Shown here: positions 28,559-41,539 of the stretch, piece after piece | Numbering within the stretch: the first letter of the stretch is position 1 | How the letters are laid out: each line of letters opens with the position of its first letter | From: a virus | Lineage: Duplodnaviria; Caudoviricetes | DNA: 43,566 bases | Strand: one strand, 5' to 3' | IMG/VR virus record: IMGVR_UViG_3300024309_000002 | Location: 1 to 43,566 of that record | The notes under the pieces: generated by a model | Told to the model about the DNA's origin: nothing | Database searches by the model: none | The model's input: only the letters and a program-made list of their open reading frames with translations | Made by a program: the position numbers and the translations under genes

Positions 28559-30331
28559 ATGCCGACCGTACCGACCTACGACGCCCCCCAAGTTGCTTCG
28601 ACCGAATTGCCCGGTGTGGGCCTGCGCTCCGTCGTGTCCCCCGGTCTGCTCACGGCTGGCTCGCGTGGGGCCGAGATCGCTCTACGCGACAACGCGAGCA
28701 ACGCACGTGGCGCGATGGACTTGGGCCGTGCGGTGCTCGACATCGGCGTGAAAATGCAGGCGCGTGACGATCTCGAAACGATCTTCACGCAGGAAACCGC
28801 TCTCAAAGATGGATGGGTCAAATTCCAAAACGAAGCGCGCCAGCGTAACGGCGCGAACGCTGCGGGCCTGACGGCGGAAACCGATGCGTGGTTTCAGCAG
28901 CAGGAGCAGGAACTCACCAAAAACTTCACCAATCGCAACCAGCAAATTGCTTTCGCCAAGACCTTCGGCCAACTACGCGCGCAGGCGATGGGCAGCATGT
29001 CGGCCTACGAGACGCAGGAACGCGAGCGCTCGCTGGCCGAGACTGCCGAGGCGTCGATAAATAGTTCGATCAATCTGGCGGCTACGGCAGCGCTCGACCC
29101 CAAAACGAACCCTGCACCGGCAGCCGCCCAGGCGCGCGAGGACATTCAATCGCGGCTGGACGTGATCGGCAAGATGCGTGGCTGGACACCCGAAGTGCTC
29201 GCTGACAAGAAAGCGAAGATGCTGGACAGCCTGCACATGTCTGTCATTGCGGCGATGATCGACCAGCGCCCCGGCGTGGCGAAAGCCTACATGAAGGCCA
29301 ACAAGGACGAGATCAGCGGCGTGAGCCAAGCGAAGGTGCGCGACTGGCTCGACACCATCGCCAAGCGCGCCGAGGGCGACGTAATCCTTGCTACGGCGCA
29401 ATCCTTCGCTGACGACGCGATCAGCAGCGGCATGACCGAGTACGACGCCATCAACGCCGCACGCGCGAAGTTCTCGGGCAAGCAGGAGGAGCAGGCTGTT
29501 CAAGCGCTCAAGGTGCGATACAACGAGCGGCAGACCTCGGCAGCCGATGCCGCCTGGGGTGCCTTCCAGAATGGCGGCGGCAAGATCGAAGCGATCCCGG
29601 TTTCGATCTTCAACGATCTGAACCCCAAGGACAAGGCCGCGCTGCAAGAGGCGGCGGCCAACGGTATTTTCCCCAAGCAATCCGACCGAGGGACGCTGGC
29701 AGACCTGTACTCGCTCGAAGCACGGGGCGATCTCACGCCGGACGTGGTGCGTCGCGCCTCGTCGCAACTGAACCAAGGCGACTATCAGAAGTTCATGGAC
29801 TCGGCGAACTCGCCCGACAAGCAGCGCACGGCCAGTATCGACGCCGACGACTTCAACACCCTGGCCGTGAAAACTGAACGCTTTGATCCCTTCTCCTCGA
29901 AGCCCGAGGACAAGGCCAAGATCGGCGAGTTGCGCTCGGCCATTGAAGCCCGGATCGACGAAGAACAGCAGGCCAAAAAGCGCGTGCTGACACGCGACGA
30001 GAAAAAGGCTGTCATGCAGTCCGTGCTCGACAACAAAGTGTTCGTTGACGAGTGGGGCCGCGATCCCGAGAAACTGCAATACCAACTGTCGGCGGACGAC
30101 CGGCAAAACGCCTACGTCGTGGTCAACACGCCGATCACGGTGCGCGGCTCGCGCTTCTCGCAGCCAGTGCAGACTACGAAGAAACAGACGATCTACCTGC
30201 GCGACATCAGCAAAGAGGAGCGCAACGCGATCATCAACAAGCTGACAAAACTGAACATGCCGATCACTGAACAGAGCATCGCCGAAGCCTGGGCCAACGC
30301 CAAGCAAAAGCAAGCCGAGTGGGGTAAATAA
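28559..30331 (+). CDS. Internal virion (ejection) protein 2, about 590 aa
   Basis: MPTVPTYD start typical of this position; helical composition; between ejection protein 1 and the giant protein. Confidence 0.7.
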   Translation: MPTVPTYDAPQVASTELPGVGLRSVVSPGLLTAGSRGAEIALRDNASNARGAMDLGRAVLDIGVKMQARDDLETIFTQETALKDGWVKFQNEARQRNGANAAGLTAETDAWFQQQEQELTKNFTNRNQQIAFAKTFGQLRAQAMGSMSAYETQERERSLAETAEASINSSINLAATAALDPKTNPAPAAAQAREDIQSRLDVIGKMRGWTPEVLADKKAKMLDSLHMSVIAAMIDQRPGVAKAYMKANKDEISGVSQAKVRDWLDTIAKRAEGDVILATAQSFADDAISSGMTEYDAINAARAKFSGKQEEQAVQALKVRYNERQTSAADAAWGAFQNGGGKIEAIPVSIFNDLNPKDKAALQEAAANGIFPKQSDRGTLADLYSLEARGDLTPDVVRRASSQLNQGDYQKFMDSANSPDKQRTASIDADDFNTLAVKTERFDPFSSKPEDKAKIGELRSAIEARIDEEQQAKKRVLTRDEKKAVMQSVLDNKVFVDEWGRDPEKLQYQLSADDRQNAYVVVNTPITVRGSRFSQPVQTTKKQTIYLRDISKEERNAIINKLTKLNMPITEQSIAEAWANAKQKQAEWGK

Positions 30332-33300
30332 TGGCCGACACTCGCAGCTTCACCGACGCGCTCGACGCGGTATTCAGCACCGGCACGCCGCCCGCTGGCC
30401 TGCAAGAGCAAGGCAACATCGACCTCACGGCGCGGCCTGTGGTGAACAACCCGGACGGGTCGATCAGCACTGTGCGCTCGATGTCTTTCAACATGGACGG
30501 GCAGGAGGTGTTGATCCCGACCGTGGCCGACGATGGCTCTCGCATCCTGTCCGATGACGAGGCCGTAGACCAGTACCGGCGTACGGGAAAGTTCCTCGGC
30601 AAGTTCGACACGCCTGAAAACGCCACGGCCTACGCGGAACAACTGCACAGCGATCAGGAGCAGCGCTACAACCCCGAATTCATGCGCGCGCTCGACGTGA
30701 CGCTTGGCGAGCAGCAAGAGGAAAATGCCGCCCGCCTGTCGGCGGTGTTGGCAAGCGTCGCCCGCATGAACCCGGACAAGTACGCCAACGCGCTCGCGCT
30801 GTCCAAGGCATCCGGCCTGCCCGTCGATCTTGTCGAACGCAACTTCGACGACGTGGCCCGCGCGCAGCAGATGCGCGACTTGAAGGCGTTGGCCGCGCGT
30901 AGCCCCGTGCTCGCGCAGCAGCTACTCGATCCGCAATTCGCCGCGCTCGCCAAGGACGACGGCGGCCCGCTGTCGGAGATCGAAAAGCAGTTTGGCACGA
31001 TCCGCGCCACGCCGCAGCCGGACAACACGGTAGCGAATTGGGCGCGCGGCCTGTGGACAACCTTCACGGAAAGCATGTCCCGTCAGCGGCTCAACGTGCA
31101 GCTTGAAGGCTTGGATTTGTTTGGTGGCAATTCCGACGCCGAGGAAATCCGCCGCGCCGATCTGCTGCGCCGGATCGCTGCCTCGCAGTCCCGCGCGGAT
31201 AGTTCCACACCAGACATCGACTCGGTTGTCGCGCGCGACATCTATAGTGGCCTGTCGAGCACCTTGCAGCAACTGCCCGGCTTGGGGCTGGCTGTGCTCA
31301 CGCGCAACCCGGCTTTTGGCCTTGCCTGGGCTGGCTCCCAAGCGCAGACGGATGCCTACGGCAAGTACCGCACTCGCGGCGGCACGCCGGGTGAAGCTGC
31401 GTTCGGCAGTGGCCTCGAAGGGGCCATCGAAGTCGGAACCGAAGCGATCCCGATGGGTTTCTTTGTTGACCGCTTCGGCAAGGAAGGGATGCGCGCGTTT
31501 ATCGGCGGCTTGCTGGCACGCGAGGTTCCCACCGAGATCGTGGCTACCATCGGGCAAAGCGCGGTCGATACCGCCATTGCTAATCCGAGCGCGACGTGGG
31601 GCGATTACATCGACTCACTGCCTTCGGACATCCGATCCACCTTCATCGCTACGGTCACGCAATCAATTCTGACGGGCGGGGCTGGCACGCTGGCTTATCG
31701 TCTGTCGGGCGAGCGCTCGCGTGTTCGTGCTGCCCAGGACAATGCGGCGGCTGTCGAGCGGCTTAAGCAACTCACGACGGCGATGAACCTGTCCAAGCGC
31801 GACGTATCGAGCGCGCAGACTTTCCTCGACGCGGCTGCCGCCGATGGCCCGCTTGAGAACATCTACCTCGACGTGCAGCGCTTGCAGCAGTCCGACGTGG
31901 ACTTGACCAAGCTGGCCGAGGTGTTGCCCTCGGCTGCCGAACAGATCGGCCCGGCGCTTGCCACGGGCGACGACATCGTGATCCCGGTGGGTGAGTTCCT
32001 CACGAACATTCAGGGTTCCGATCTCGACGCCCAGGTAACGCCGCACATCCGCACGTCGCCCGACGCCTTGAGCGTGGACGACGCCAACCGCTTCGTTGCC
32101 TCCGAGACGGCCAACATGCAGGCAGCCGCCGCGCAGATCGTGGCCGAGCGCGAGCAGGACGCAGCGTGGCAATCGGAAGTCGCCCAGGTTGAGCAGCACT
32201 TTGCCGATCAATTGGCCCAAGTCGGGCGGTTCAGCCCGGACGTGAACAGCGCCTATTCGGGGGTGCTTCGTGACTTTTATACAACGATGGCTGCACGCAC
32301 TGGCCGCACGCCAGCGCAGATGTTGGCCGAGTTTCCGCTGCAAGTCCGGGCCGAAGGTATCCCCGGCGAGCAACAACTGAATCAGGAGGCCGCCGATGGC
32401 AGCCACACTACCGCCACTGTCCCCGGAGTATCGGGCGGACAAGACCTTCTCACAACTGTCGCAGGCCAACAAGCCAGCGCCGGATGGGCAGCCGCAACCG
32501 TCGTCCGACGACCAGACGACCGCCCTGCTGCGGTTTATCGAGCAGGCCGAGCAGTCACCCCAGGCGACTTCGACGGGGCCGTTGTCGGGCCTGCTGGCGG
32601 CCCTGCGGGGCATGGCCTCGGCGTTTGGTTTACCAGCGAGCAGCGAGAGGCCGCCGAAAATGGAACCGTAACGCCCTACTACCTCGATTTGCGTAACCCG
32701 TTCCCGACCACATTGGCGGCCATGCCCCGATTTGAGACGGCGGCCCAGGCCGCCGCATGGCGTGACGAACTGCGCGCGCAAGGGTATGATGGAGTGGCTA
32801 TCGACGAGCGCGAGCGCGGCGGCCCTGTGCAGTTTGTGGCCTTCGCTCCCGAGGCCGTCATCCAAGCCCCTCCCTCCGATCCGTTGAATGTGGGGGCATT
32901 TTCACAGGGGCAAGATGATGGAACTGGACGAGGACTTGAAGGACGCACTGACGTATCTGGACGAGGCGAGGCGCGCGGAAGCGATAGCGCACTTGCAGGA
33001 GGCGAAGGACTCGCCAGCGGAGTTCGCACTGCGTCGGATGGCGATCATGGCGGAAGCGGAAGAATCACCGAAGATCGGGGACTTGCGCCTCTTGAAGGTG
33101 CGCCATCAGTCCAAGGGTTTCACGGGCCAGACCCGCGACTCGTCGCTGTCGCAGAACAATACGCCGCCGACCAGGGGATAACTCTCAAGCGGCAAGCCGT
33201 CTATGTCGAAGTCGATCCCGAGCGGGCTACCCGCATCGCGGCGGCTTACGACGAGATGGAACACGCCCCCCACGACCCGAAGGTCAAAGAAGCATACGCC

Positions 33301-36300
33301 AACCTCATCGCGCAGACTGTCGCACAGTACCGCGCTCTTGAAGCGGCAGGCTATCGCTTCTGGTTCATCGACATCAATACCCCCGAAGGGCGGGCGTATT
33401 CGTCCTCGCCGTGGAACGCCATGCGCGACATCCGGGCGAATCAGTCGATGGGCATTTTCCCGACTGACGAGGGCTTCGGCTCCAACGAAGAATTCAACGC
33501 GGACGAAAACCCGCTGCAAGCCGACACCGGCATTCTGTGGCCCAACGGATCGCCAGACGGGCCGCTAAAACCCGTGCTCGCCAATGACCTTTTCCGTGCG
33601 GTACACGACGCTTTCGGCCACGGCCTTGAGGGCGCAGGCTTTCGCGCGCGGGGCGAGGAAAACGCTTGGCAGTCGCACGTGCGCCTTTTCACGGGCAGCG
33701 CGGTAGGCGCGATCACCACCGAGACACGCGGGCAAAATAGCTGGCTCAACTATGGCCCCTACGGTGAAAGCAACCGCACGGCCAGCGCAGCCGAAACCCA
33801 CTTCGCCGACCAGAAAACGGGCCTCATGCCCGAGTGGACTTGGCAGGAAGGCGTCGCGCCCGACGAGGGCGGTAACGGTAGTGGAGACGAACGCAGCACG
33901 CTCGAACAATCCGCCCTGCCGCCTGGGCAGATCACGCTCGTCCACTACTCGAATCAGGCTGATCTCGCGCAGACCGACCCGGACAAACACGGCACCGGCT
34001 ACAAGGGTGCGGAACGCCAGCGCCGCGATGCGTTCCCCGATCTGTACGTCAACCGCACCTACTTCGGCATCACGGGGATCGACAATCCTTATCAGCGCGA
34101 GTCGGGCCTCGGCACGAACGTCTACCACGCGACGGTGGATTCCGCCGACCTGTACGACATGAAGGCCGATCCCGATGGTCTGTATCCGCAGGCGCGCGAG
34201 GAATCACGACGCACCGATCTGAACGGTATCGAGAACTGGACTCGCACGGAAAGCATCTACAAGGCCATGATCCGCGACGCGGGATACAAGGGCTACTACG
34301 TCGGCAACGTGGCCGCCGTGTTTGAGCCGATGGCCGTGCAGAAGGGCAACGCGATGGCTCAAAACGAATCGCGCGGCCAACTGTCCTTCGGCAGCGACAT
34401 CACGCAGTCGCCAAGCGTCATCACGCTGTTCGAGAAAGCCAACCTCTCGACGCTGCTGCATGAACTCGGCCACTTCCAGCTTGAGGTGCTCGCCAATCTG
34501 GCCGCGCGGCCCAACGCGCCCACCAGCATCGTCGCCGACATGAACGCCGTGCTGCGCTGGTTCGACGAGTGGTTCACGCTCGATCAATGGCGTGCGATGA
34601 CCGTAGAGGAAAAGCGCCCATACCACGAACGATTCGCGCGCGGCTTCGAGGCGTATTTGTTCGAGGGCAAAGCACCTACCCCGGAACTGAAAACGCTGTT
34701 CCAGCGTTTTGCCGCCTGGATGCGCCGGGTGTACCAGAACATCACGCGCCTGAACGTCGAGGTGTCGCCCGAGGTGAAAGCGGTGTTCGACCGGATGCTC
34801 GCGTCAGAACAGGCCATCGCCGAGGCCCAGGCCGCCGCCAGCATGACTCCGGCTTTCGGTTCCGCCGAGGCGATGGGAACGGATGCCGAGGGTTTCACAG
34901 CCTATCAGGCACTCGGGCAGGAAGCCACGGACACGGCCACGGATGCCCTACAGCAACGCAGCCTGCGCGACATGCGCTACGCAGGCAAAGCGCGCGACAA
35001 GTTCATCAAGGACATGCAGAAGGCCACGGCCCGCATCCGCAAGACGCTGCGCGCCGAGGTGCAGGCCGACGTGCGCGCTCAACCCGTCTACGCCGCCATG
35101 CACTTCCTACGGCGCGGCGAGATGACGACGGACGCAGGCGAGCAGATCAAGGCCAGCATCGGTCACAAACTGGATCGGGCAGCCCTGGCCGAGATGTACC
35201 CCGACTCTATGCTCTCGCGCCCCGACCTGTCGCGGCTGCGCGGCATGACGCGCAAGGATGGGCTGCACCCCGATCAAGTCGCCGAGATATTCGGCTTTCA
35301 GTCGGGCGATCAGCTTGTGCGCGAGATCATCGACGCGACACCGGAAAACGAGTATGTCGAGGCCGAGACGGACGCGCGCATGTTGGAACGCTACGGCGAC
35401 ATCACCAGCCCCGAAGCGCTCGCTCGTGCCGCCGACGAGGCGATCCACAACGACGTGCGCGCTCGCTTCGTGGCTACCGAGATCAAGGCCGCCGTGAAGT
35501 CTGTCGGCCCCGTGCGTGCGCTGACGGCGGCAGCCAAGGACTACGCCGAGCGCCTGATCGCGCGCAAGCGGGTCAAGGACTTGCGCCCCCGGCAGCACGC
35601 CGCAGCCGAAGGGCGCGCGGCCAAGGCCGCGCTCGATGCGCTCGCCAAGAACGACCCCCAGGGCTTCGCCGTGCAGAAACGCAATCAGCTTGTGCAAATC
35701 CAAGCGACGAAGTTGGCCTACGAGGCACAGAACGAGATGGCTGCCATGCTGCGCCGTTGGTCGCAGATCGTGCGGCGTAACGATGAGCGTGCAGGCAAGT
35801 CCTACGACATCGACATGCTCAACGCGGTGCGCGCCATCCTCGGCATGTACGGGATCGCGCCGCGCACGGGCGAGCGCGCGATGGACTATCTCGGCAAGGT
35901 GAAGAACTACGACCCCGACATGTATGCCGTGGTCGAGGATTCCGTCATGCGCGCCGAAGCCAACGCGCAGCCGTTCGATGAGTTGACGGTCGAGGACGCG
36001 CGGGCCTTGCGCGACGAGATCGACGCGCTGCTGCACCTTGCACGCCGCAGCAAGCAAATGGAGGTGGACGGCGATCTGATCGACCGGCAGGAAGTCGAGG
36101 AAGCCTTGCGCGCCCGCATGGAGGAGATCGGCCTGCCCGATGTCGCCCCCGGCCAGTTGTCGGCCATCACGCCCAAAGAGCAGGCCATCATCCGCTTCAA
36201 GACGTTCCGGGCGGCTGCGCGCCGTGTGGAAAGTTGGGTGGGCGAGATCGACGGCAAAGACTTCGGGCCGTTCCGCCGCTTTATGTGGAACCGGGTGAAG

Positions 36301-38238
36301 GACGCCGCGACTGCGTACCGCACGGACAAGGCCAAGCACCTCACGAAGCTGCGCGACTTGCTCAACAGCATCGCGCCCTCGCTCAAGCCCCTGCGGATCG
36401 AAGCCCCCGAGTTGAACTACACGTTCGGCAAGGACACGGCCAACAGCGCCACGGCGGAAATCCTGCACGCGCTGCTGCACACCGGCAACGAGAGCAACAA
36501 GCGCAAGCTGCTGCTCGGGCGCAATTGGGCTACCGAGCGCGAGGACGGTTCGCTCGACACGTCGCGGTGGGATGCCTTCATCAAGCGCATGATCGACGAG
36601 GGCCGGATCACCAAGGCCCATTACGACTTCGCGCAGGGCGTGTGGGACTTGCTCGAAAGCCTCAAGCCGCTCGCACAAAAGACGCACCGGGATGTGTTCG
36701 GCAAATACTTCGACGAGATCACGGCCACGCCGTTCTCCACGCCTTTCGGCGACTACCGAGGCGGGTACGTACCGGCCAAGGCCGACACGCGCATTGTGGG
36801 CGATGCAGCAATGCGCGATCTGATCGAGCGCGAAAACGCGAGCATGGCCTATGCCTTCCCCGCCACGGCCAAGGGCTTCACGAAGGGCCGCGTCGAATAC
36901 AACCGCCCGCTCATGCTTGACCTGCGTACGCTCGCGCAGCACGTCGATCAAGTGCTGCTGTTCTCGCACATGGAGATGCCGGTACGCGACGTGACGCGCG
37001 TGCTCAAGGGCGTGCAAGGCACGCTGTACCGGCTTGACCCCACGGCCCTGTCCGGGATGCTCACGCCCTGGCTCAACCGTGCCGCCCGCCAGCAGGTTGT
37101 CACGCCTATCGCGGGCGACGCCGGGATGTCTCGCTTCTGGTCTGTGCTGCGCTCGCGCGCAGGCGCGGCGGCCATGTTCGCCAACATCGCCAACGCGGCG
37201 CAGCAGATCACGGGCTTTTCCCTGGCTGCGGTGAAGGTCAAGCCGCGCCTGCTCAAATCGGCCATCGCCGACTACATGAAAAGCCCGCGCGAGTTCACCC
37301 GCGCGGTGGCCGAAGCGTCGCCCTTCATGTCCGACCGCATGAACGACACCATCGGCCATCTCTCGGACGACATCCGGGAAATCTTGCTGAACCCGACGAA
37401 GTTGCAACAGGCCCAGGGCTGGACAATGCGCCATGCTTATTTCTTGCAGCAGGCCGTCGATAATGTCATGTCGCCCTCGATCTGGCAGGCCGCCTACAAC
37501 CAGCACGTCGAGGAAGGCCACAACCACGATGACGCGGTGCGCTTCGCTGACGGCGTGATCCGGCAGACCCAGGGCAGCCAACTGCCCGAGGACGTGTCGC
37601 GCATCGAAACCGGCCCGGCCTTCGTGCGGCTGTTCACGCAGTTTGCCGGGTACTTCAACATGCAAGCCAACCTACTCGGCACCGAGTTCGCCAATCTGGC
37701 GCGAGACTACGGGCTGCGTAAGGGGGCGAGTCGGGGGTTCTTTGTGCTCGCGTCGGGGTTCCTCGTACCGGCTATCGTGGCCGAGGCCGTCGTGCAAGTG
37801 TTTCGAGGCGGGCCGGGCGACGAGGACGACGATGGCTATCTCGATGACTGGCTCTCGGCCTTGAGCCTGGGCGTGCTACGCAACGCAACGGCGATGGTTC
37901 CCATCGCCGGACAGCTTGCCAATGCCGTCGTGAACTCGATGAACAACAAGCCATACGACGACCGGCTCGCCACGGCCCCCGCAATCTCCATGATCGAGAA
38001 CGCGATCCGGGCGGTTCCCTCGACCTACAAGGCGGCGGCAGGCACCGGCAGCGCGCAGAAGGCCGTGCGCGATGTGGCCTCGCTTATTGGCATCACGGTG
38101 GGCCTGCCTGCTCCTGTGGCTGCGCGTCCCCTGGCCTACGCTGCGGGCATGGCTTCGGGCAAGATCGAGCCAACCAGCGCGCTCGATACGGCCCGTGGTC
38201 TGCTGACAGGTACAGCCAGCGAGGAGTCCCGACGATAA
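30331..38238 (+). CDS. Giant internal virion/ejection protein with inserted enzymatic domains (polyvalent protein), 2635 aa
   Basis: Position of the T7 gp16 analogue; two ADP-ribosyltransferase-like segments, a RAVHDAFGH...EENAW domain and a HELGH zincin motif. Confidence 0.8.
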   Translation: MADTRSFTDALDAVFSTGTPPAGLQEQGNIDLTARPVVNNPDGSISTVRSMSFNMDGQEVLIPTVADDGSRILSDDEAVDQYRRTGKFLGKFDTPENATAYAEQLHSDQEQRYNPEFMRALDVTLGEQQEENAARLSAVLASVARMNPDKYANALALSKASGLPVDLVERNFDDVARAQQMRDLKALAARSPVLAQQLLDPQFAALAKDDGGPLSEIEKQFGTIRATPQPDNTVANWARGLWTTFTESMSRQRLNVQLEGLDLFGGNSDAEEIRRADLLRRIAASQSRADSSTPDIDSVVARDIYSGLSSTLQQLPGLGLAVLTRNPAFGLAWAGSQAQTDAYGKYRTRGGTPGEAAFGSGLEGAIEVGTEAIPMGFFVDRFGKEGMRAFIGGLLAREVPTEIVATIGQSAVDTAIANPSATWGDYIDSLPSDIRSTFIATVTQSILTGGAGTLAYRLSGERSRVRAAQDNAAAVERLKQLTTAMNLSKRDVSSAQTFLDAAAADGPLENIYLDVQRLQQSDVDLTKLAEVLPSAAEQIGPALATGDDIVIPVGEFLTNIQGSDLDAQVTPHIRTSPDALSVDDANRFVASETANMQAAAAQIVAEREQDAAWQSEVAQVEQHFADQLAQVGRFSPDVNSAYSGVLRDFYTTMAARTGRTPAQMLAEFPLQVRAEGIPGEQQLNQEAADGSHTTATVPGVSGGQDLLTTVAGQQASAGWAAATVVRRPDDRPAAVYRAGRAVTPGDFDGAVVGPAGGPAGHGLGVWFTSEQREAAENGTVTPYYLDLRNPFPTTLAAMPRFETAAQAAAWRDELRAQGYDGVAIDERERGGPVQFVAFAPEAVIQAPPSDPLNVGAFSQGQDDGTGRGLEGRTDVSGRGEARGSDSALAGGEGLASGVRTASDGDHGGSGRITEDRGLAPLEGAPSVQGFHGPDPRLVAVAEQYAADQGITLKRQAVYVEVDPERATRIAAAYDEMEHAPHDPKVKEAYANLIAQTVAQYRALEAAGYRFWFIDINTPEGRAYSSSPWNAMRDIRANQSMGIFPTDEGFGSNEEFNADENPLQADTGILWPNGSPDGPLKPVLANDLFRAVHDAFGHGLEGAGFRARGEENAWQSHVRLFTGSAVGAITTETRGQNSWLNYGPYGESNRTASAAETHFADQKTGLMPEWTWQEGVAPDEGGNGSGDERSTLEQSALPPGQITLVHYSNQADLAQTDPDKHGTGYKGAERQRRDAFPDLYVNRTYFGITGIDNPYQRESGLGTNVYHATVDSADLYDMKADPDGLYPQAREESRRTDLNGIENWTRTESIYKAMIRDAGYKGYYVGNVAAVFEPMAVQKGNAMAQNESRGQLSFGSDITQSPSVITLFEKANLSTLLHELGHFQLEVLANLAARPNAPTSIVADMNAVLRWFDEWFTLDQWRAMTVEEKRPYHERFARGFEAYLFEGKAPTPELKTLFQRFAAWMRRVYQNITRLNVEVSPEVKAVFDRMLASEQAIAEAQAAASMTPAFGSAEAMGTDAEGFTAYQALGQEATDTATDALQQRSLRDMRYAGKARDKFIKDMQKATARIRKTLRAEVQADVRAQPVYAAMHFLRRGEMTTDAGEQIKASIGHKLDRAALAEMYPDSMLSRPDLSRLRGMTRKDGLHPDQVAEIFGFQSGDQLVREIIDATPENEYVEAETDARMLERYGDITSPEALARAADEAIHNDVRARFVATEIKAAVKSVGPVRALTAAAKDYAERLIARKRVKDLRPRQHAAAEGRAAKAALDALAKNDPQGFAVQKRNQLVQIQATKLAYEAQNEMAAMLRRWSQIVRRNDERAGKSYDIDMLNAVRAILGMYGIAPRTGERAMDYLGKVKNYDPDMYAVVEDSVMRAEANAQPFDELTVEDARALRDEIDALLHLARRSKQMEVDGDLIDRQEVEEALRARMEEIGLPDVAPGQLSAITPKEQAIIRFKTFRAAARRVESWVGEIDGKDFGPFRRFMWNRVKDAATAYRTDKAKHLTKLRDLLNSIAPSLKPLRIEAPELNYTFGKDTANSATAEILHALLHTGNESNKRKLLLGRNWATEREDGSLDTSRWDAFIKRMIDEGRITKAHYDFAQGVWDLLESLKPLAQKTHRDVFGKYFDEITATPFSTPFGDYRGGYVPAKADTRIVGDAAMRDLIERENASMAYAFPATAKGFTKGRVEYNRPLMLDLRTLAQHVDQVLLFSHMEMPVRDVTRVLKGVQGTLYRLDPTALSGMLTPWLNRAARQQVVTPIAGDAGMSRFWSVLRSRAGAAAMFANIANAAQQITGFSLAAVKVKPRLLKSAIADYMKSPREFTRAVAEASPFMSDRMNDTIGHLSDDIREILLNPTKLQQAQGWTMRHAYFLQQAVDNVMSPSIWQAAYNQHVEEGHNHDDAVRFADGVIRQTQGSQLPEDVSRIETGPAFVRLFTQFAGYFNMQANLLGTEFANLARDYGLRKGASRGFFVLASGFLVPAIVAEAVVQVFRGGPGDEDDDGYLDDWLSALSLGVLRNATAMVPIAGQLANAVVNSMNNKPYDDRLATAPAISMIENAIRAVPSTYKAAAGTGSAQKAVRDVASLIGITVGLPAPVAARPLAYAAGMASGKIEPTSALDTARGLLTGTASEESRR
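32396..32671 (+). CDS. Candidate nested +1-frame gene A inside the giant protein, 91 aa
   Basis: AGGAGG 6 nt before the ATG; G/C-ending codons in this frame while the host frame uses rare CGA/GGA/CCA codons. Confidence 0.5.
   Translation: MAATLPPLSPEYRADKTFSQLSQANKPAPDGQPQPSSDDQTTALLRFIEQAEQSPQATSTGPLSGLLAALRGMASAFGLPASSERPPKMEP
32915..33181 (+). CDS. Candidate nested +1-frame gene B inside the giant protein, 88 aa
   Basis: AGGGG before ATGATG; acidic amphipathic helix MELDEDLKDALTYLDEARRAEAIAHL; codon-bias inversion relative to the host frame. Confidence 0.55.
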   Translation: MMELDEDLKDALTYLDEARRAEAIAHLQEAKDSPAEFALRRMAIMAEAEESPKIGDLRLLKVRHQSKGFTGQTRDSSLSQNNTPPTRG

Positions 38239-38300: not shown

Positions 38301-40220
38301 ATGACCGTTTCCAATACCAATCGTCGCGCGGGGCCGTTTCCGGGTGCTGACTCGCCTGGGCCTTTCGGTTTCGACTTTTACACCCCCGCCCCCGAGGATG
38401 TCGTCGCAATCCGGGCAGACCCCCTCGGCGCGGAAACGGCGCTCATCTACGGCGCGGATTTCTCGGTCACGTTGAACGACGACCAGAGCGAGAACCCCGG
38501 CGGGGATTTGCTGCTCACGAACGCGCTGCCCTCCGGCTACACGCTCACGCTCACGAGCGCCTCGCCCGCATTGCAACCGACCGACATCACGAACTTGAGC
38601 GGCTTCTACCAGAAGCTGATTACGCTGGCGCTCGACCGGCTCACCGTGCTCGTGCAGCAGACGGATGAGAAAGTCGGGCGTGCGGTGAAGGTGCCGATTT
38701 CCAGCACGATCACGCCGGACGATCTCATCAACCAGCTTACCAACGCGGCATCCGACGCCGTGAATGCAGCATTGAACGCGGCCACGTCCGAAGGCAATGC
38801 CCATGACTCGGAAGTCGCGGCAGCTACCAGCGAGAGCAACGCCCACGATTCCGAACTGGCCGCTGCGCTGTCGGAAAGCCGCGCCGCAGCAAGTGAAGGT
38901 GCTGCCGCTGGATCGGCCAGCGCAGCCCTGGTCAGCGAAGGTCACGCCCACGACTCCGAACTGGCCGCTGCACTGTCCGCATCGAACGCGGCCACGTCCG
39001 AAGGCAATGCCCACGATTCCAAGGTGGCAGCGGCCACGTCCGAAGGCAACGCCGCCGATTCGGCCAGCGCAGCCGCTGCGAGTCAGAACGCCGCTGCGCT
39101 GTCCGAAACCCACGCCGCTGCAAGCGAAGTGGCCGCCAAGACATACCTCGAAACCCTGGTGCAACCTTTCGCGTTCACGAAAGCGGACTACAACACGCCC
39201 TGCCTGAAAAAGACCGGGGCGCAAACCGTCAGCATCAAAGCCGGTACGGTCGTTGTTGTGTCCAACGTAGCGCGGGCCTTCCCTGCCGATACCGCTGTCA
39301 CGATGCCCGGTACGCTCACCGCAGGCGAGGATTACAGCGTGTGGGTCAAGCCCGACAATACCGCTGTGGCCGTTGTCGATTCGTTCCTGGCCCCGGCCAG
39401 CGCGCCCGCCGTGGGCGCGGTACGCATCGGCGGCTTCCACTACGGTCTGGTCACGGCGGGCGAGACAGTGGCCGGGGGCAGTTTCGCCACCAGTGGGGTG
39501 ACAGCAGGCGGCGGGTCGATGGCCTGGACGCAAACCGATGTAGACCGCATCGCGGGTATCAACGAGTTTTCCCTGTGGGACTTGGCTTTCCGCTGCGCGG
39601 GTGAACAGTATGGCATGGCCTATGACCCCTGGGCCGACGTGTGGGTCGCTATCTACTTCTGCAACACCGCCCCCCATGTCAATGGCGTCAGCCGCTACAA
39701 CACGGACGTTTGCAGCGGCACCGTTCTGCCCTTCGTCGCGCCGTCTTTCGGCGGCGACGGGGTGCTGAAATACAGCGCCTTCCGATCCTGGGAGGCGAAC
39801 GAAATTTGCCTAGATCATGGCCTGCGCCTGATCCGGTACGAAGAATTCGTATCCGCCGCGTTCGGCGTCACCGAGGGCCAGAGCCTGGGCGGCGCGTCCG
39901 CAACGATTCCGGCCACCATGCGCCAGCCGGGCTACACGTCGCGCATCGGCCTGGAACAGACCACCGGCCATGTCTACACCATCGGCGGCCCGATGATCGG
40001 GCAAGGCGGATCGGCCTGGGCAGGAAACGGTCGGGGATCGAACTATGGCGGTGGGTGCGTCCAGTTGTTCGGCGGCGCCCGTACGGGCGCGTCCGGTTCG
40101 GGGTCGCGTTGCGTCGACTTCGGCAGCGGCCTCGGGTCCTCGAACTGGAGCGTTTCGCTGCGCGCCGCCGGTGACCCGCAAAAAACAATCGGCCCGGCCC
40201 TTTATCAAGAGGCCGCGTAA
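38301..40220 (+). CDS. Tail fibre/receptor-binding protein with C-terminal Mtd-like (C-type lectin fold) domain; DGR target, 639 aa
   Basis: N-terminal podovirus fibre anchor (ALDRLT...QQ), Ala/Ser repeat shaft, GGFHY...INEFSLWD..FR motifs resembling BPP-1 Mtd, and a VR near the 3' end. Confidence 0.88.
   Translation: MTVSNTNRRAGPFPGADSPGPFGFDFYTPAPEDVVAIRADPLGAETALIYGADFSVTLNDDQSENPGGDLLLTNALPSGYTLTLTSASPALQPTDITNLSGFYQKLITLALDRLTVLVQQTDEKVGRAVKVPISSTITPDDLINQLTNAASDAVNAALNAATSEGNAHDSEVAAATSESNAHDSELAAALSESRAAASEGAAAGSASAALVSEGHAHDSELAAALSASNAATSEGNAHDSKVAAATSEGNAADSASAAAASQNAAALSETHAAASEVAAKTYLETLVQPFAFTKADYNTPCLKKTGAQTVSIKAGTVVVVSNVARAFPADTAVTMPGTLTAGEDYSVWVKPDNTAVAVVDSFLAPASAPAVGAVRIGGFHYGLVTAGETVAGGSFATSGVTAGGGSMAWTQTDVDRIAGINEFSLWDLAFRCAGEQYGMAYDPWADVWVAIYFCNTAPHVNGVSRYNTDVCSGTVLPFVAPSFGGDGVLKYSAFRSWEANEICLDHGLRLIRYEEFVSAAFGVTEGQSLGGASATIPATMRQPGYTSRIGLEQTTGHVYTIGGPMIGQGGSAWAGNGRGSNYGGGCVQLFGGARTGASGSGSRCVDFGSGLGSSNWSVSLRAAGDPQKTIGPALYQEAA
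38776..39130 (+). repeat. Imperfect coding repeats (AATSEGNAHDSE-like) in the fibre shaft
   Basis: Recurring GCGGCCACGTCCGAAGGCAA and GCCCA(C/T)GA(C/T)TC units. Confidence 0.75.
40068..40173 (+). repeat. DGR variable repeat (VR) ending in a G/C element
   Basis: 106-bp gapless match to 40316-40421; all 18 mismatches lie opposite TR adenines. Confidence 0.95.
40195..40215. promoter_or_regulatory. Candidate DGR target-recognition hairpin downstream of VR
   Basis: CGGCCCTT-TATC-AAG(A)GGCCG, an 8-bp stem with one bulge; the loop reads GATA on the bottom strand. Confidence 0.4.
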
Positions 40221-40315
40221 TGAACATCGCACTGCCGCGCCAAAGCGCCCTGCCTCCGTTGGCAGTGCATCGGTTTTTGCTGCCCTTCTGGACGGCAAAA
40301 AGGGTGGAGCAAGAT

Positions 40316-40421
40316 AACAGCGGCAACCGTACGAACACGTCCAATTCGGGGTCGCGTTGCGTCAACTTCAACAACGGCCTCGGGAACTCGAACTGGAACA
40401 TTTCGCTGCGCGCCGCCGGTG
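40316..40421 (+). ncRNA. DGR template repeat (TR)
   Basis: AAC-rich copy of VR with 24 adenines; diverges from VR right after ...GCCGCCGGTG (IMH versus IMH* position). Confidence 0.95.
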
Positions 40422-40558
40422 GCGATTGTCAACCCGCCGTGATGCAAGCCGCGCATCCCGGCACTTTGGTCAGCTTGCTTCACCTGCTTCGGCAAATACC
40501 TTCCTGGGTGCGGAGAACGGCGAGTAGTGAGAATCGAAAGCCGCGCCGCCTTGTTGTC

Positions 40559-41539
40559 ATGGGCAAGAAATACAAGAACCTTTACGACACCATCACGTCG
40601 ATGGAGAACCTGCGCGCGGCGTACAAAAAGACCTCGCGCGGCAAGCGCAAGACCCGCAGCTACCGGACGTTCACCGGCCACCTGGATAGCCGCCTGCGAT
40701 CTGTGCGGCGCAGTCTGATGACGGGATCGTACCGGCAAGGCAAGCCCCGCCAGTTCACGATTTTTGAGCCGAAAGAACGCCTGATTTCCGCGCTGCCCTT
40801 CCGCGACCGCCTTGTGCAGCATGCGCTTTGCAACGTCATCGAGCCGATTTTCGACGGGGTGTTTCTGCCGCAGTCCTACGCCTGCCGCAAAGGCAAAGGA
40901 ACGCATGCCGCTGCCCGCGACGTGCAGGCGGCGCTTCGCCGGATGCAGGCCCAGGGCCTGCCGGTGTGGGTGCTGAAAACGGACTTCTCCAAGTATTTCG
41001 CCAGCATTCCCCTGGACGTGCTGCACCGCGAGTATCGGCGCAAGATTTCGTGTAAACGCACCCTGGCGCTGCTGGACAAACTGCTGCCCAAATCGGGCCG
41101 GGGCATCCGCATCGGCGAACTTATCAGCCAACTTTCGGCCAACCTGATCGGCCACGTCGTGGACCGCTGGCTCGTCCACACGAAGGGTGTCACGACGTTC
41201 TTTCGCTACATGGACGACATCGTGATCCTGGGTTCCGACCGGGCGGCCCTGGCCCGCCTGCGCGTCGAACTCGAAGCCTTCGCGCTGGCTGAACTCGGCC
41301 TGCACTTTTCGCGCTGGTCACTGCTGCCAGTCTCGCGCGGAGTCAATTTCGTGGGCTACCGCATCTGGCCTTCTCACAAACTGCTGCGCCGGGATTCCGT
41401 CACCCGCGCCAAGCGCAAGGTGCGCCGGTATCGGGCGCACGGCGCGATGGAGCGTTTGCGGATGTTCCTGGCGTCTTGGCTCGGCCACGCCCGGTGGGCC
41501 GACTCGCATCACCTGATCGCATCTATGGGGGTCGCATGA
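40559..41539 (+). CDS. brt: DGR reverse transcriptase, 326 aa from MGKKYKNL; the frame is open back to the ATG at 40220
   Basis: EPKERLI.ALPFRDR, YACR.GKGTH, DFSKYF, IG..ISQ, YMDD and FVGYRI motifs; size and N-terminus resemble BPP-1 bRT; adjacent TR and VR. Confidence 0.95.
   Translation: MGKKYKNLYDTITSMENLRAAYKKTSRGKRKTRSYRTFTGHLDSRLRSVRRSLMTGSYRQGKPRQFTIFEPKERLISALPFRDRLVQHALCNVIEPIFDGVFLPQSYACRKGKGTHAAARDVQAALRRMQAQGLPVWVLKTDFSKYFASIPLDVLHREYRRKISCKRTLALLDKLLPKSGRGIRIGELISQLSANLIGHVVDRWLVHTKGVTTFFRYMDDIVILGSDRAALARLRVELEAFALAELGLHFSRWSLLPVSRGVNFVGYRIWPSHKLLRRDSVTRAKRKVRRYRAHGAMERLRMFLASWLGHARWADSHHLIASMGVA

Follow-up and report, generated by a model that had tools for sequence, protein, structure and literature searches.

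Can the low-complexity linker of a giant phage protein also be, in a second reading frame, the gene for a small protein? The question is raised by a 43,566-nucleotide (nt) stretch of viral DNA (Duplodnaviria; Caudoviricetes), IMG/VR record IMGVR_UViG_3300024309_000002, positions 1 to 43,566, which as a whole is called the window. A long gene of the window, which we define as the host gene and which is predicted to encode a polyvalent protein, carries a short open reading frame (ORF) in its +1 frame, here called ORF B or gene B, just ahead of one of its domains. A reading of the sequence alone had noted that AGGGG-caag-ATGATG opens an 88-amino-acid (aa) ORF at this place, that the host frame beneath it is a low-complexity linker of Gly, Arg, Asp and Ser (G/R/D/S), and that the codon usage of the ORF is normal. 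The arrangement is present as described, with the start at 32915, one base off the implied 32916, and both the composition of the linker and the codon usage of the ORF are borne out by the counts and scores given below. We conclude that the +1 ORF at 32918-33181 is quite probably a genuine translated gene, nested out of frame in the linker of a polyvalent gene.

The AGGGG is followed by caag at 32911-32914, by ATGATG at 32915-32920 and, in frame with the latter, by a TAA stop at 33179-33181. Position 32915 is the middle base of a host codon, which places ORF B in the +1 frame of 30331-38238, and the ORF lies wholly inside the longer gene, on the same strand and in a different frame, as an embedded gene does. 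ORF B is 88 codons long when read from 32915, 87 codons from 32918 and 97 codons from an upstream ATG at 32888. The start at 32918 is preferred because L114, a metagenome contig that is a 72% relative of the window from the ART-like domain through the linker to the domain that follows, retains the second ATG and not the first. The duplex of AGGGG with the anti-Shine-Dalgarno sequence is worth -5.7 kcal/mol, the same letters are present in L114, and gene B thus has, on sequence evidence, its own start codon and ribosome-binding site. The product of 87 aa was modeled by AlphaFold as all-helical, with four helices (H5-12, H16-28, H33-49 and H51-71) and with predicted local distance difference test (pLDDT) scores of 81-92 over residues 1-50 and of 51-62 over the last ~25; its N half has an isoelectric point of 4.4 and its C half one of 11.6. 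The host reading of the same DNA, 32914-33087, comprises 58 codons, including G16, D7, R7, S6 and A6, and GGA provides 12 of its 16 Gly codons, versus 11% of the Gly codons gene-wide.

The composition of the window itself points to the +1 frame. GC content by host codon position is ~0.8/0.7/0.37 at 32890-33100 and 0.67/0.47/0.79 in the whole gene, such that the former is a normal coding pattern moved by one base. A codon-frequency score was built from 14 genes and applied in 937 sliding windows of 60 codons, and the annotated frame was out-scored at the 5′ ends of four genes and at two internal sites. The out-of-frame scores at the four 5′ ends were rejected as artefacts of ORF starts set too far upstream. 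Both internal sites are located in the host gene, at 32371-32670 and at 32791-33240, and the highest +1-over-0 score among all 937 windows was obtained at 32911.

Comparison with close relatives indicated which frame is being maintained. The +1 ORF is open at 87 codons in L114, and in the 49 ungapped codons of its N-terminal part (N part) the window and L114 differ at 30 sites, distributed 8/6/16 by +1 codon position and hence 16/8/6 by host codon position; this is the sole segment with a peak at host position 1. Differences in the flanks, by host position, were 3/2/18 in the ART core, 18/19/74 in the domain and 4/1/22 in the stretch downstream of it, and a Fisher test on positions 1 and 3 of the N part against the flanks gave p = 6e-7. 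When the N part was read in the +1 frame, there were 8 synonymous and 12 replacing codon changes at an aa identity of 0.76, and when it was read in the host frame there were 1 synonymous and 21 replacing changes at an identity of 0.57. Near-identical strains were represented by contigs of the whole stretch from runs X6 and X8, which are 97.5% and 95.6% identical to the window. Among the 40 of 80 strain differences listed, those at 33028, 33061 and 33121 all replace a host residue and are silent in the +1 frame (3/3), which holds for only 1/37 elsewhere. We conclude that the substitutions are those expected of purifying selection on the nested frame, by tests that are not tree-aware.

The last part of ORF B behaves differently from the first. 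In both strain contigs, a C>A change at 33144 leaves the host protein unaltered and introduces a stop into the +1 frame, and because the ORF is thereby truncated by 12 codons, the tail that overlaps the domain is probably dispensable at full length. The tail also shows strong host-frame conservation at 33089..33181 and low pLDDT, and in the wider family its length ranges from 17 to 41 codons.

A second +1 ORF of the host gene, gene A, provides a useful negative control for the coding tests applied to gene B. Gene A is preceded by a Shine-Dalgarno (SD) sequence of -10.3 kcal/mol, is favored by the +1 codon score and is open in L114. Nonetheless, differences between the window and L114 fell 2/5/11 by host position in gene A, with 10 synonymous and 6 nonsynonymous changes in the host frame and 2 synonymous and 15 nonsynonymous changes in the +1 frame. 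Among the strain differences listed, 8 fall within it, of which 6 leave the host protein unchanged and 1 leaves the +1 peptide unchanged, and no relatives of gene A were found in viral contigs. Gene A was rejected as coding, since its substitutions follow the host frame, and we regard it as a chance ORF or, at most, one that lacks conservation. The sequence-only reading had treated A and B as instances of one shared arrangement, a generalization that fails in the window, where gene A is under host-frame selection. The stretch containing gene A (32371-32670) scores as +1-coding despite its host-frame substitution pattern.

Relatives of the domain downstream of ORF B were found in 213 phage records, mostly as partial matches, and IMG/VR holds an estimated 565 confirmed stretches of it. 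The family analysis took the best 80 of these ~565 loci, with a non-redundant subset of 59 loci (<90% nt identity). The host frame is open for >200 codons upstream of the domain in 79/79 anchored loci (L015 was dropped by the anchor pattern), and the domain is therefore internal to large ORFs. A conserved +1 peptide, roughly (Y/W)(N/D)PN.PETEEDG[IL]RA[GE].LR|[LR]L[KR][AV]R, lies just upstream of the PLEG start of the domain in 76/80 loci, a count that holds partly by construction, as the hidden Markov model (HMM) of the motif was built from 54 of the 80. The other four (L013, L019, L053 and L063) have no +1 peptide and a different, non-G/R linker. The host-frame reading at the family junction is variable,.GDG.GR.....[LI][AT]PLEG.

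Conservation of the +1 peptide exceeds what the host protein would impose. When each host protein was kept and its synonymous codons were redrawn from the usage of the same locus, the +1 identity expected over codons -16 to -1 was 0.151, versus 0.376 observed in the 59 loci, and identity in the host frame itself was 0.275. The host Gly columns are GGA in 36/36, 32/32 and 37/42 loci, versus a background of 22%, and a host Arg column is CGG in 33/43, versus 12%. The sites that do vary at the junction are host first positions and therefore +1 third positions, where any base is found at Pro and Thr, purines are found at Glu and pyrimidines at Asp. Entropy by host position was 1.37/0.97/1.04 in the linker and 0.79/0.62/1.44 and 0.89/0.83/1.60 in the domain, and in 14 close pairs of loci, some of them from the same clades, differences by host position numbered 72/29/41 in the linker and 129/84/567 in the domain.

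The signals for starting and stopping translation are also retained. In 55/55 non-redundant loci with the +1 ORF, that is, the 59 less the four without the peptide, the stretch from the last +1 stop to the motif contains an ATG, GTG or TTG codon, often among the four codons that directly follow the stop. SD sequences of -6 kcal/mol or stronger were found in 37/55 loci versus 27.6% of 1885 length-matched control windows, and those of -8 kcal/mol or stronger were found in 20/55 loci versus 11.2% of controls; the loci without an SD sequence have low GC and A-rich leaders. At the other end, a +1 stop occurs 41 codons into the domain in 27/55 loci, created by a GTA Val codon. GTA is rare, and at the conserved V-D of codon +41 (the 33211-33213 region of the window) it is used in 35/53 loci, versus 96/530 Val codons of the domain in the background. 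In some of the loci bearing GTA at codon +41, the +1 ORF has already ended earlier. Ahead of the motif, the acidic helical N extension of 45 residues was found only in L113 and L114 besides the window; other clades have different N extensions, some of which are common to several loci. The features of the locus are listed in Table 1.

Table 1. Positions in the window of the host gene, the nested ORFs and the associated elements
Feature	Position	Strand	Description
Host gene	30331..38238	+	2635-aa protein of the virion module, predicted polyvalent; from ORF list and translation
Gene A	32396..32671	+	91-codon +1 ORF with strong SD; not accepted as coding
SD-like AGGGG	32906..32910	+	Spacing of 4 nt to the first ATG and of 7 nt to the second
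Probable start codon (second ATG)	32918..32920	+	First ATG (32915) is ATA in L114, second ATG kept
Putative nested gene B	32918..33181	+	+1 frame; 87 codons and TAA
N part of gene B	32918..33064	+	49 codons, lineage-specific, acidic, helical; host reading is the G/R/D/S linker
Degenerate family core motif	33050..33088	+	AEAEESPKIGDLR in the window; PETEEDG[IL]RA[GE].LR in most relatives
Tail of gene B	33089..33181	+	Overlaps the downstream domain over its first 30 codons, which are conserved
Downstream domain	33043..33873	+	Host frame, aa ~905-1180; motifs NDLFRAVHDAFGHG, GEENAWQ and ETRGQNSW

Gene B and the domain appear to move together. Two loci in different polyvalent contexts, L119 and L121, are 90-100% identical from ~-60 nt to ~+796 nt around the start of the domain and <45% identical outside these limits, from which we infer that the exchanged unit comprises the domain and the small-ORF core. 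The sequence-only reading had suggested that effector domains travel with an embedded ORF, and for gene B the suggestion agrees with a unit that spans the ORF core to the domain end. In another locus (L025:1380-3400), the domain is tandemly duplicated within one polyvalent gene and each copy has its own +1 ORF. Among loci from prokaryote genomes with the domain, the +1 motif ORF was found in 10/80, all 10 at a domain identity of at least 60%; these belong to Gamma-, Beta- and Alphaproteobacteria and to one Pirellulales metagenome-assembled genome, and they include the isolate Halomonas sp. NO4 (NZ_WHMA01000002.1, L162). The domain itself was modeled by AlphaFold2 with a pLDDT of 91; it had no sequence match in the PDB and no Foldseek match at an expect value (E) of 0.001 or better, and it matches phrog_3170, listed there as of unknown function. 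Two distant relatives of the domain gave a sub-threshold match to MATCAP/DUF1704 only. In Streptomyces phage Dagobah (L117, MT711977.1 45002-45864), a distant homologue of the domain is free-standing and is split in the annotation into two adjacent small genes, one of 75 and one of 189 aa; the +1 motif is absent from it.

A number of observations weigh against the interpretation of ORF B as a gene or narrow what it can mean. A linker of GNN codons rich in Gly, Arg, Asp and Glu automatically yields a +1 frame that is poor in stops and rich in Glu, Lys and Ala, and the host gene holds nine other same-strand ORFs of at least 80 aa in alternative frames (seven +1 and two +2), so that the length of ORF B is by itself no more than chance. 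The strain evidence rests on 40 of 80 differences. The sole RNA library to hold the sequence, X4, contributed a 21-kb contig identical to the DNA, which is no proof of transcription. In the resampling, the control region downstream was also above expectation, by 1.3- to 1.4-fold, and z-scores are inflated by shared ancestry, an inflation that the control excess gauges. In the clade of L043 and L050, a long N-terminal +1 extension is under host-frame selection, with 9 synonymous and 5 nonsynonymous changes in the host frame and 2 synonymous and 10 nonsynonymous changes in the +1 frame; some open +1 stretches are therefore non-coding. In the window itself, the core motif is degenerate, with an HMM score of 13.6 bits (E 0.0012); the motif in L114, EAEEAAAIRSAEQRRLQNRR, is closer to the family by eye and scores -0.4 bits. 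The +1 motif was not found in the distant domain homologues examined, namely those of Microcystis phage Mel-JY33, Planktothrix phage Pag-Yong1, Octadecabacter virus BD1 (L003), Streptomyces phage Dagobah, L002 and L009. Finally, Pfam, PHROGs and the ESM Atlas offered no family, fold or language-model neighbor that points to a function.

The host frame is constrained as well. If only the +1 peptide had been kept, a host identity of 0.198 would be expected, versus 0.302 observed, and a stop would arise in the host frame in 35/55 loci. Because the host frame is also constrained, the junction reads as a case of true dual coding, with selection acting on both frames. Taken at the level of sequence, these comparisons demonstrate dual coding that includes constraint on the +1 frame.

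How gene B might be expressed and what its product might do can be outlined on this basis. As the start and the SD sequence are conserved, ribosomes would initiate at the internal AGGGG-N7-ATG on a long late mRNA. Initiation would give a free helical protein of 87 aa, or of 75 aa in some strains, acidic in its N half and basic in its C half, and a ribosome in the host frame would translate this stretch into a G/R/D/S spacer. What looks like a linker would then be the footprint of the small gene. Since codon usage is normal in the nested frame and the host frame is of low complexity, the host reading of the linker is probably the younger of the two. Once made, the small protein would work upon the neighboring domain or together with it, and might be a regulator, an inhibitor or an assembly partner. 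That it binds the domain, or acts on or with it, is a tentative proposal drawn from the transfer of the small-ORF core and the domain as one unit. A broader proposal, more doubtful still, is that the linkers of giant polyvalent virion proteins are not spacers and are instead small genes in a second frame, that the micro-protein of each cassette, translated from an internal ribosome-binding site, binds and controls the adjacent domain and that the giant gene is a compact operon. Under such an arrangement, a micro-protein would, for example, keep its domain inactive or unfolded until packaging and ejection, and cassettes would be exchanged as effector-plus-controller units.

Some database records depart from the nested layout. 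One protein of 308 aa (P0055) has a helix-turn-helix (HTH) domain resembling DnaA_C, after which the PETEEDG junction motif follows in frame as three tandem copies; in 21 viral loci (L091-L111) the HTH gene occurs alone, with no PETEEDG motif. P0055 looks like a chimera or oddity, or else a real repeat of the junction. Another protein, of 322 aa from an ENA record (P0089), reads straight from the +1 ORF into the domain. Its IMG/VR relatives L121 and L123, at 92-93% identity, have the ordinary nested layout and are unfused, and for this reason the fusion in P0089 is probably due to an indel or an error. A compensated double frameshift or assembly error was ruled out as the origin of the nested layout itself, which repeats in dozens of independent contigs; in-frame conservation of the host from the PLEG motif onward also opposes it.

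Three other explanations of the +1 ORF were weighed against that of a translated gene. The one that survives best, although we consider it unlikely, is that the conserved stretch is a nucleic-acid element, such as a recombination handle for the shuffling of cassettes or an RNA signal, and that the +1 ORF is its by-product. Such an element would accommodate the abrupt beginning of cassette similarity ~60 nt before the domain, within the conserved stretch, as well as the frozen synonymous sites of the host, the three tandem junction copies in P0055 and the finding that the +2 frame is also over expectation (0.291 versus 0.146). Selection on the nucleic acid would not, however, free the third positions of +1 codons, and the variable sites are exactly those. 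It also leaves unexplained the presence of a start in 55/55 loci, the enrichment of SD sequences, the apparently selected +1 stop and the +1-silent changes across the 49-codon N part that is unique to the window.

Quite improbable is recoding, in which host ribosomes would shift to the +1 frame and end early with a new tail, or ribosomes that had started at the +1 ATG would shift back into the frame of the domain. P0089, which runs from the +1 ORF into the domain, speaks for recoding, but L121 and L123, its relatives, are unfused. The junction also has a CTT codon after G-rich, SD-like bases, a combination that we take to resemble known +1 shift sites. Against this, no common slippery heptamer of the kind that marks a frameshift site is visible in the aligned junctions, and many loci have a +1 stop 0-3 codons before the +1 start, which leaves no room for a shift upstream. 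That ORF B is instead a chance open frame, with a helix-looking +1 reading that stems from a GC-rich linker of Gly, Arg and Asp, is highly unlikely, for although the nine alternative-frame ORFs, the equally good SD and codon score of the unconserved gene A and the lack of a protein-family or phage tblastn match for the peptide would all suit it, the phase of substitution switches in the gene B segment only, +1 conservation in the family exceeds host conservation, and starts, SD sites and stop all appear to be selected, such that chance is disfavored by the comparisons with close relatives and across the family. We conclude that a translated nested gene remains the preferred interpretation of the +1 ORF.

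Nested genes of several kinds are known with which gene B can be compared. The Rz1 gene of phage lambda lies in the +1 frame of Rz, and both proteins are produced. Embedded two-component spanin genes of this type, each a small gene within a larger phage gene, are described in the available text of two articles (PMC6139136 and PMC5295617). Gene B is like Rz1 in being a small +1 gene wholly inside a larger phage gene and having its own start. Rz1 is an outer-membrane lipoprotein that belongs to a lysis cassette and binds the product of its host gene, whereas the 87-aa product of gene B has no Cys, no lipobox and no signal sequence or hydrophobic N terminus and so lacks the marks of an outer-membrane spanin (o-spanin). 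Moreover, unlike Rz1, gene B is located in a gene for a virion protein, over a low-complexity linker and not a folded part, and it moves with a domain cassette.

Overprinted genes are also found in small viruses, such as phiX174, in which E lies in D and B lies in A. The available text of two reviews treats overprinting more generally (PMC8227390 and PMC3494269). The likeness of gene B to overprinted genes consists of dual coding with normal composition in one frame and odd composition in the other, and the difference is that here normal codon usage belongs to the short nested frame and low complexity to the long host frame. In polymorphic toxin systems, immunity genes are located downstream of the toxin domain and are not overlapped by it, and toxin-immunity pairs are defined by toxicity and binding. 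Gene B recalls such cassettes in that a small cognate gene accompanies a variable enzymatic domain; it differs from them in lying upstream of the domain, whose first 30 codons it overlaps, and does not have the downstream layout.

Out-of-frame genes embedded in phage genes are thus already known, and it is the placement in the linker of a polyvalent protein that seems new, as we found none in the literature covered. Full-text searches of freely accessible articles, at the level of listings and passages, returned no description of genes nested in the linkers of polyvalent proteins. A term search of the main text of the founding survey of polyvalent proteins turned up no embedded genes, and the words "frameshift," "overlapping" and "linker" occur in it 0 times, with "nested" used only for a hairpin structure (PMC5512222). 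Genes that lie within a longer ORF go unreported by gene callers, and the family has largely been missed. If gene B is real, low-complexity linkers in giant virion proteins deserve re-examination, and the shuffling of polyvalent domains would have a defined unit in which each cassette brings a candidate regulator of its enzyme. The family is a good natural example of dual coding in which the "old" and the "new" frame can be told apart.

Searches with the peptide itself returned little. The 88-aa peptide had no tblastn match in 50,697 phage records, the nested protein had no match in Pfam or PHROG, and its best ESM Atlas scores, at 0.84, were uninformative. When viral contigs were searched with the window's own peptide, one weak relative (L112) was obtained. 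In a collection of 5.8 billion proteins, the members of the family that had been called numbered only 53 small and 4 longer ones, none of them named and most of them from short contigs.

The host gene is flanked, by PHROG context, by genes for a tail protein and an endolysin-like protein upstream and by a tail-fibre gene downstream. Pfam LPD22 matched host aa 138-225 with 66.8 bits, versus a cutoff of 28.6, and ART-PolyVal matched aa 763-841 with 18 bits, which is under its cutoff of 31.2 and is a lead only. The host gene has LPD22 above cutoff and a weak match to ART-PolyVal, encodes many domains and is located in the virion module; it is therefore classed by its sequence matches as a polyvalent protein, and it resembles in these four respects the polyvalent proteins in the available text of Iyer et al. 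2017 (PMC5512222). The 43.6-kb window is an entire viral contig with a GC content of 63%. Its sequence is contained in L113, a 193-kb metagenome contig, at 100% identity over the 5.7 kb compared, and because of this larger contig the window is probably a prophage. In other runs, the window sequence was found in contigs of 18-28 kb. Directly after a tail-fibre-like gene (38301-40220), the window encodes a reverse transcriptase (40220-41539, plus strand; phrog_1423, E 1e-125), and the two together look like a diversity-generating retroelement that acts on the fibre.

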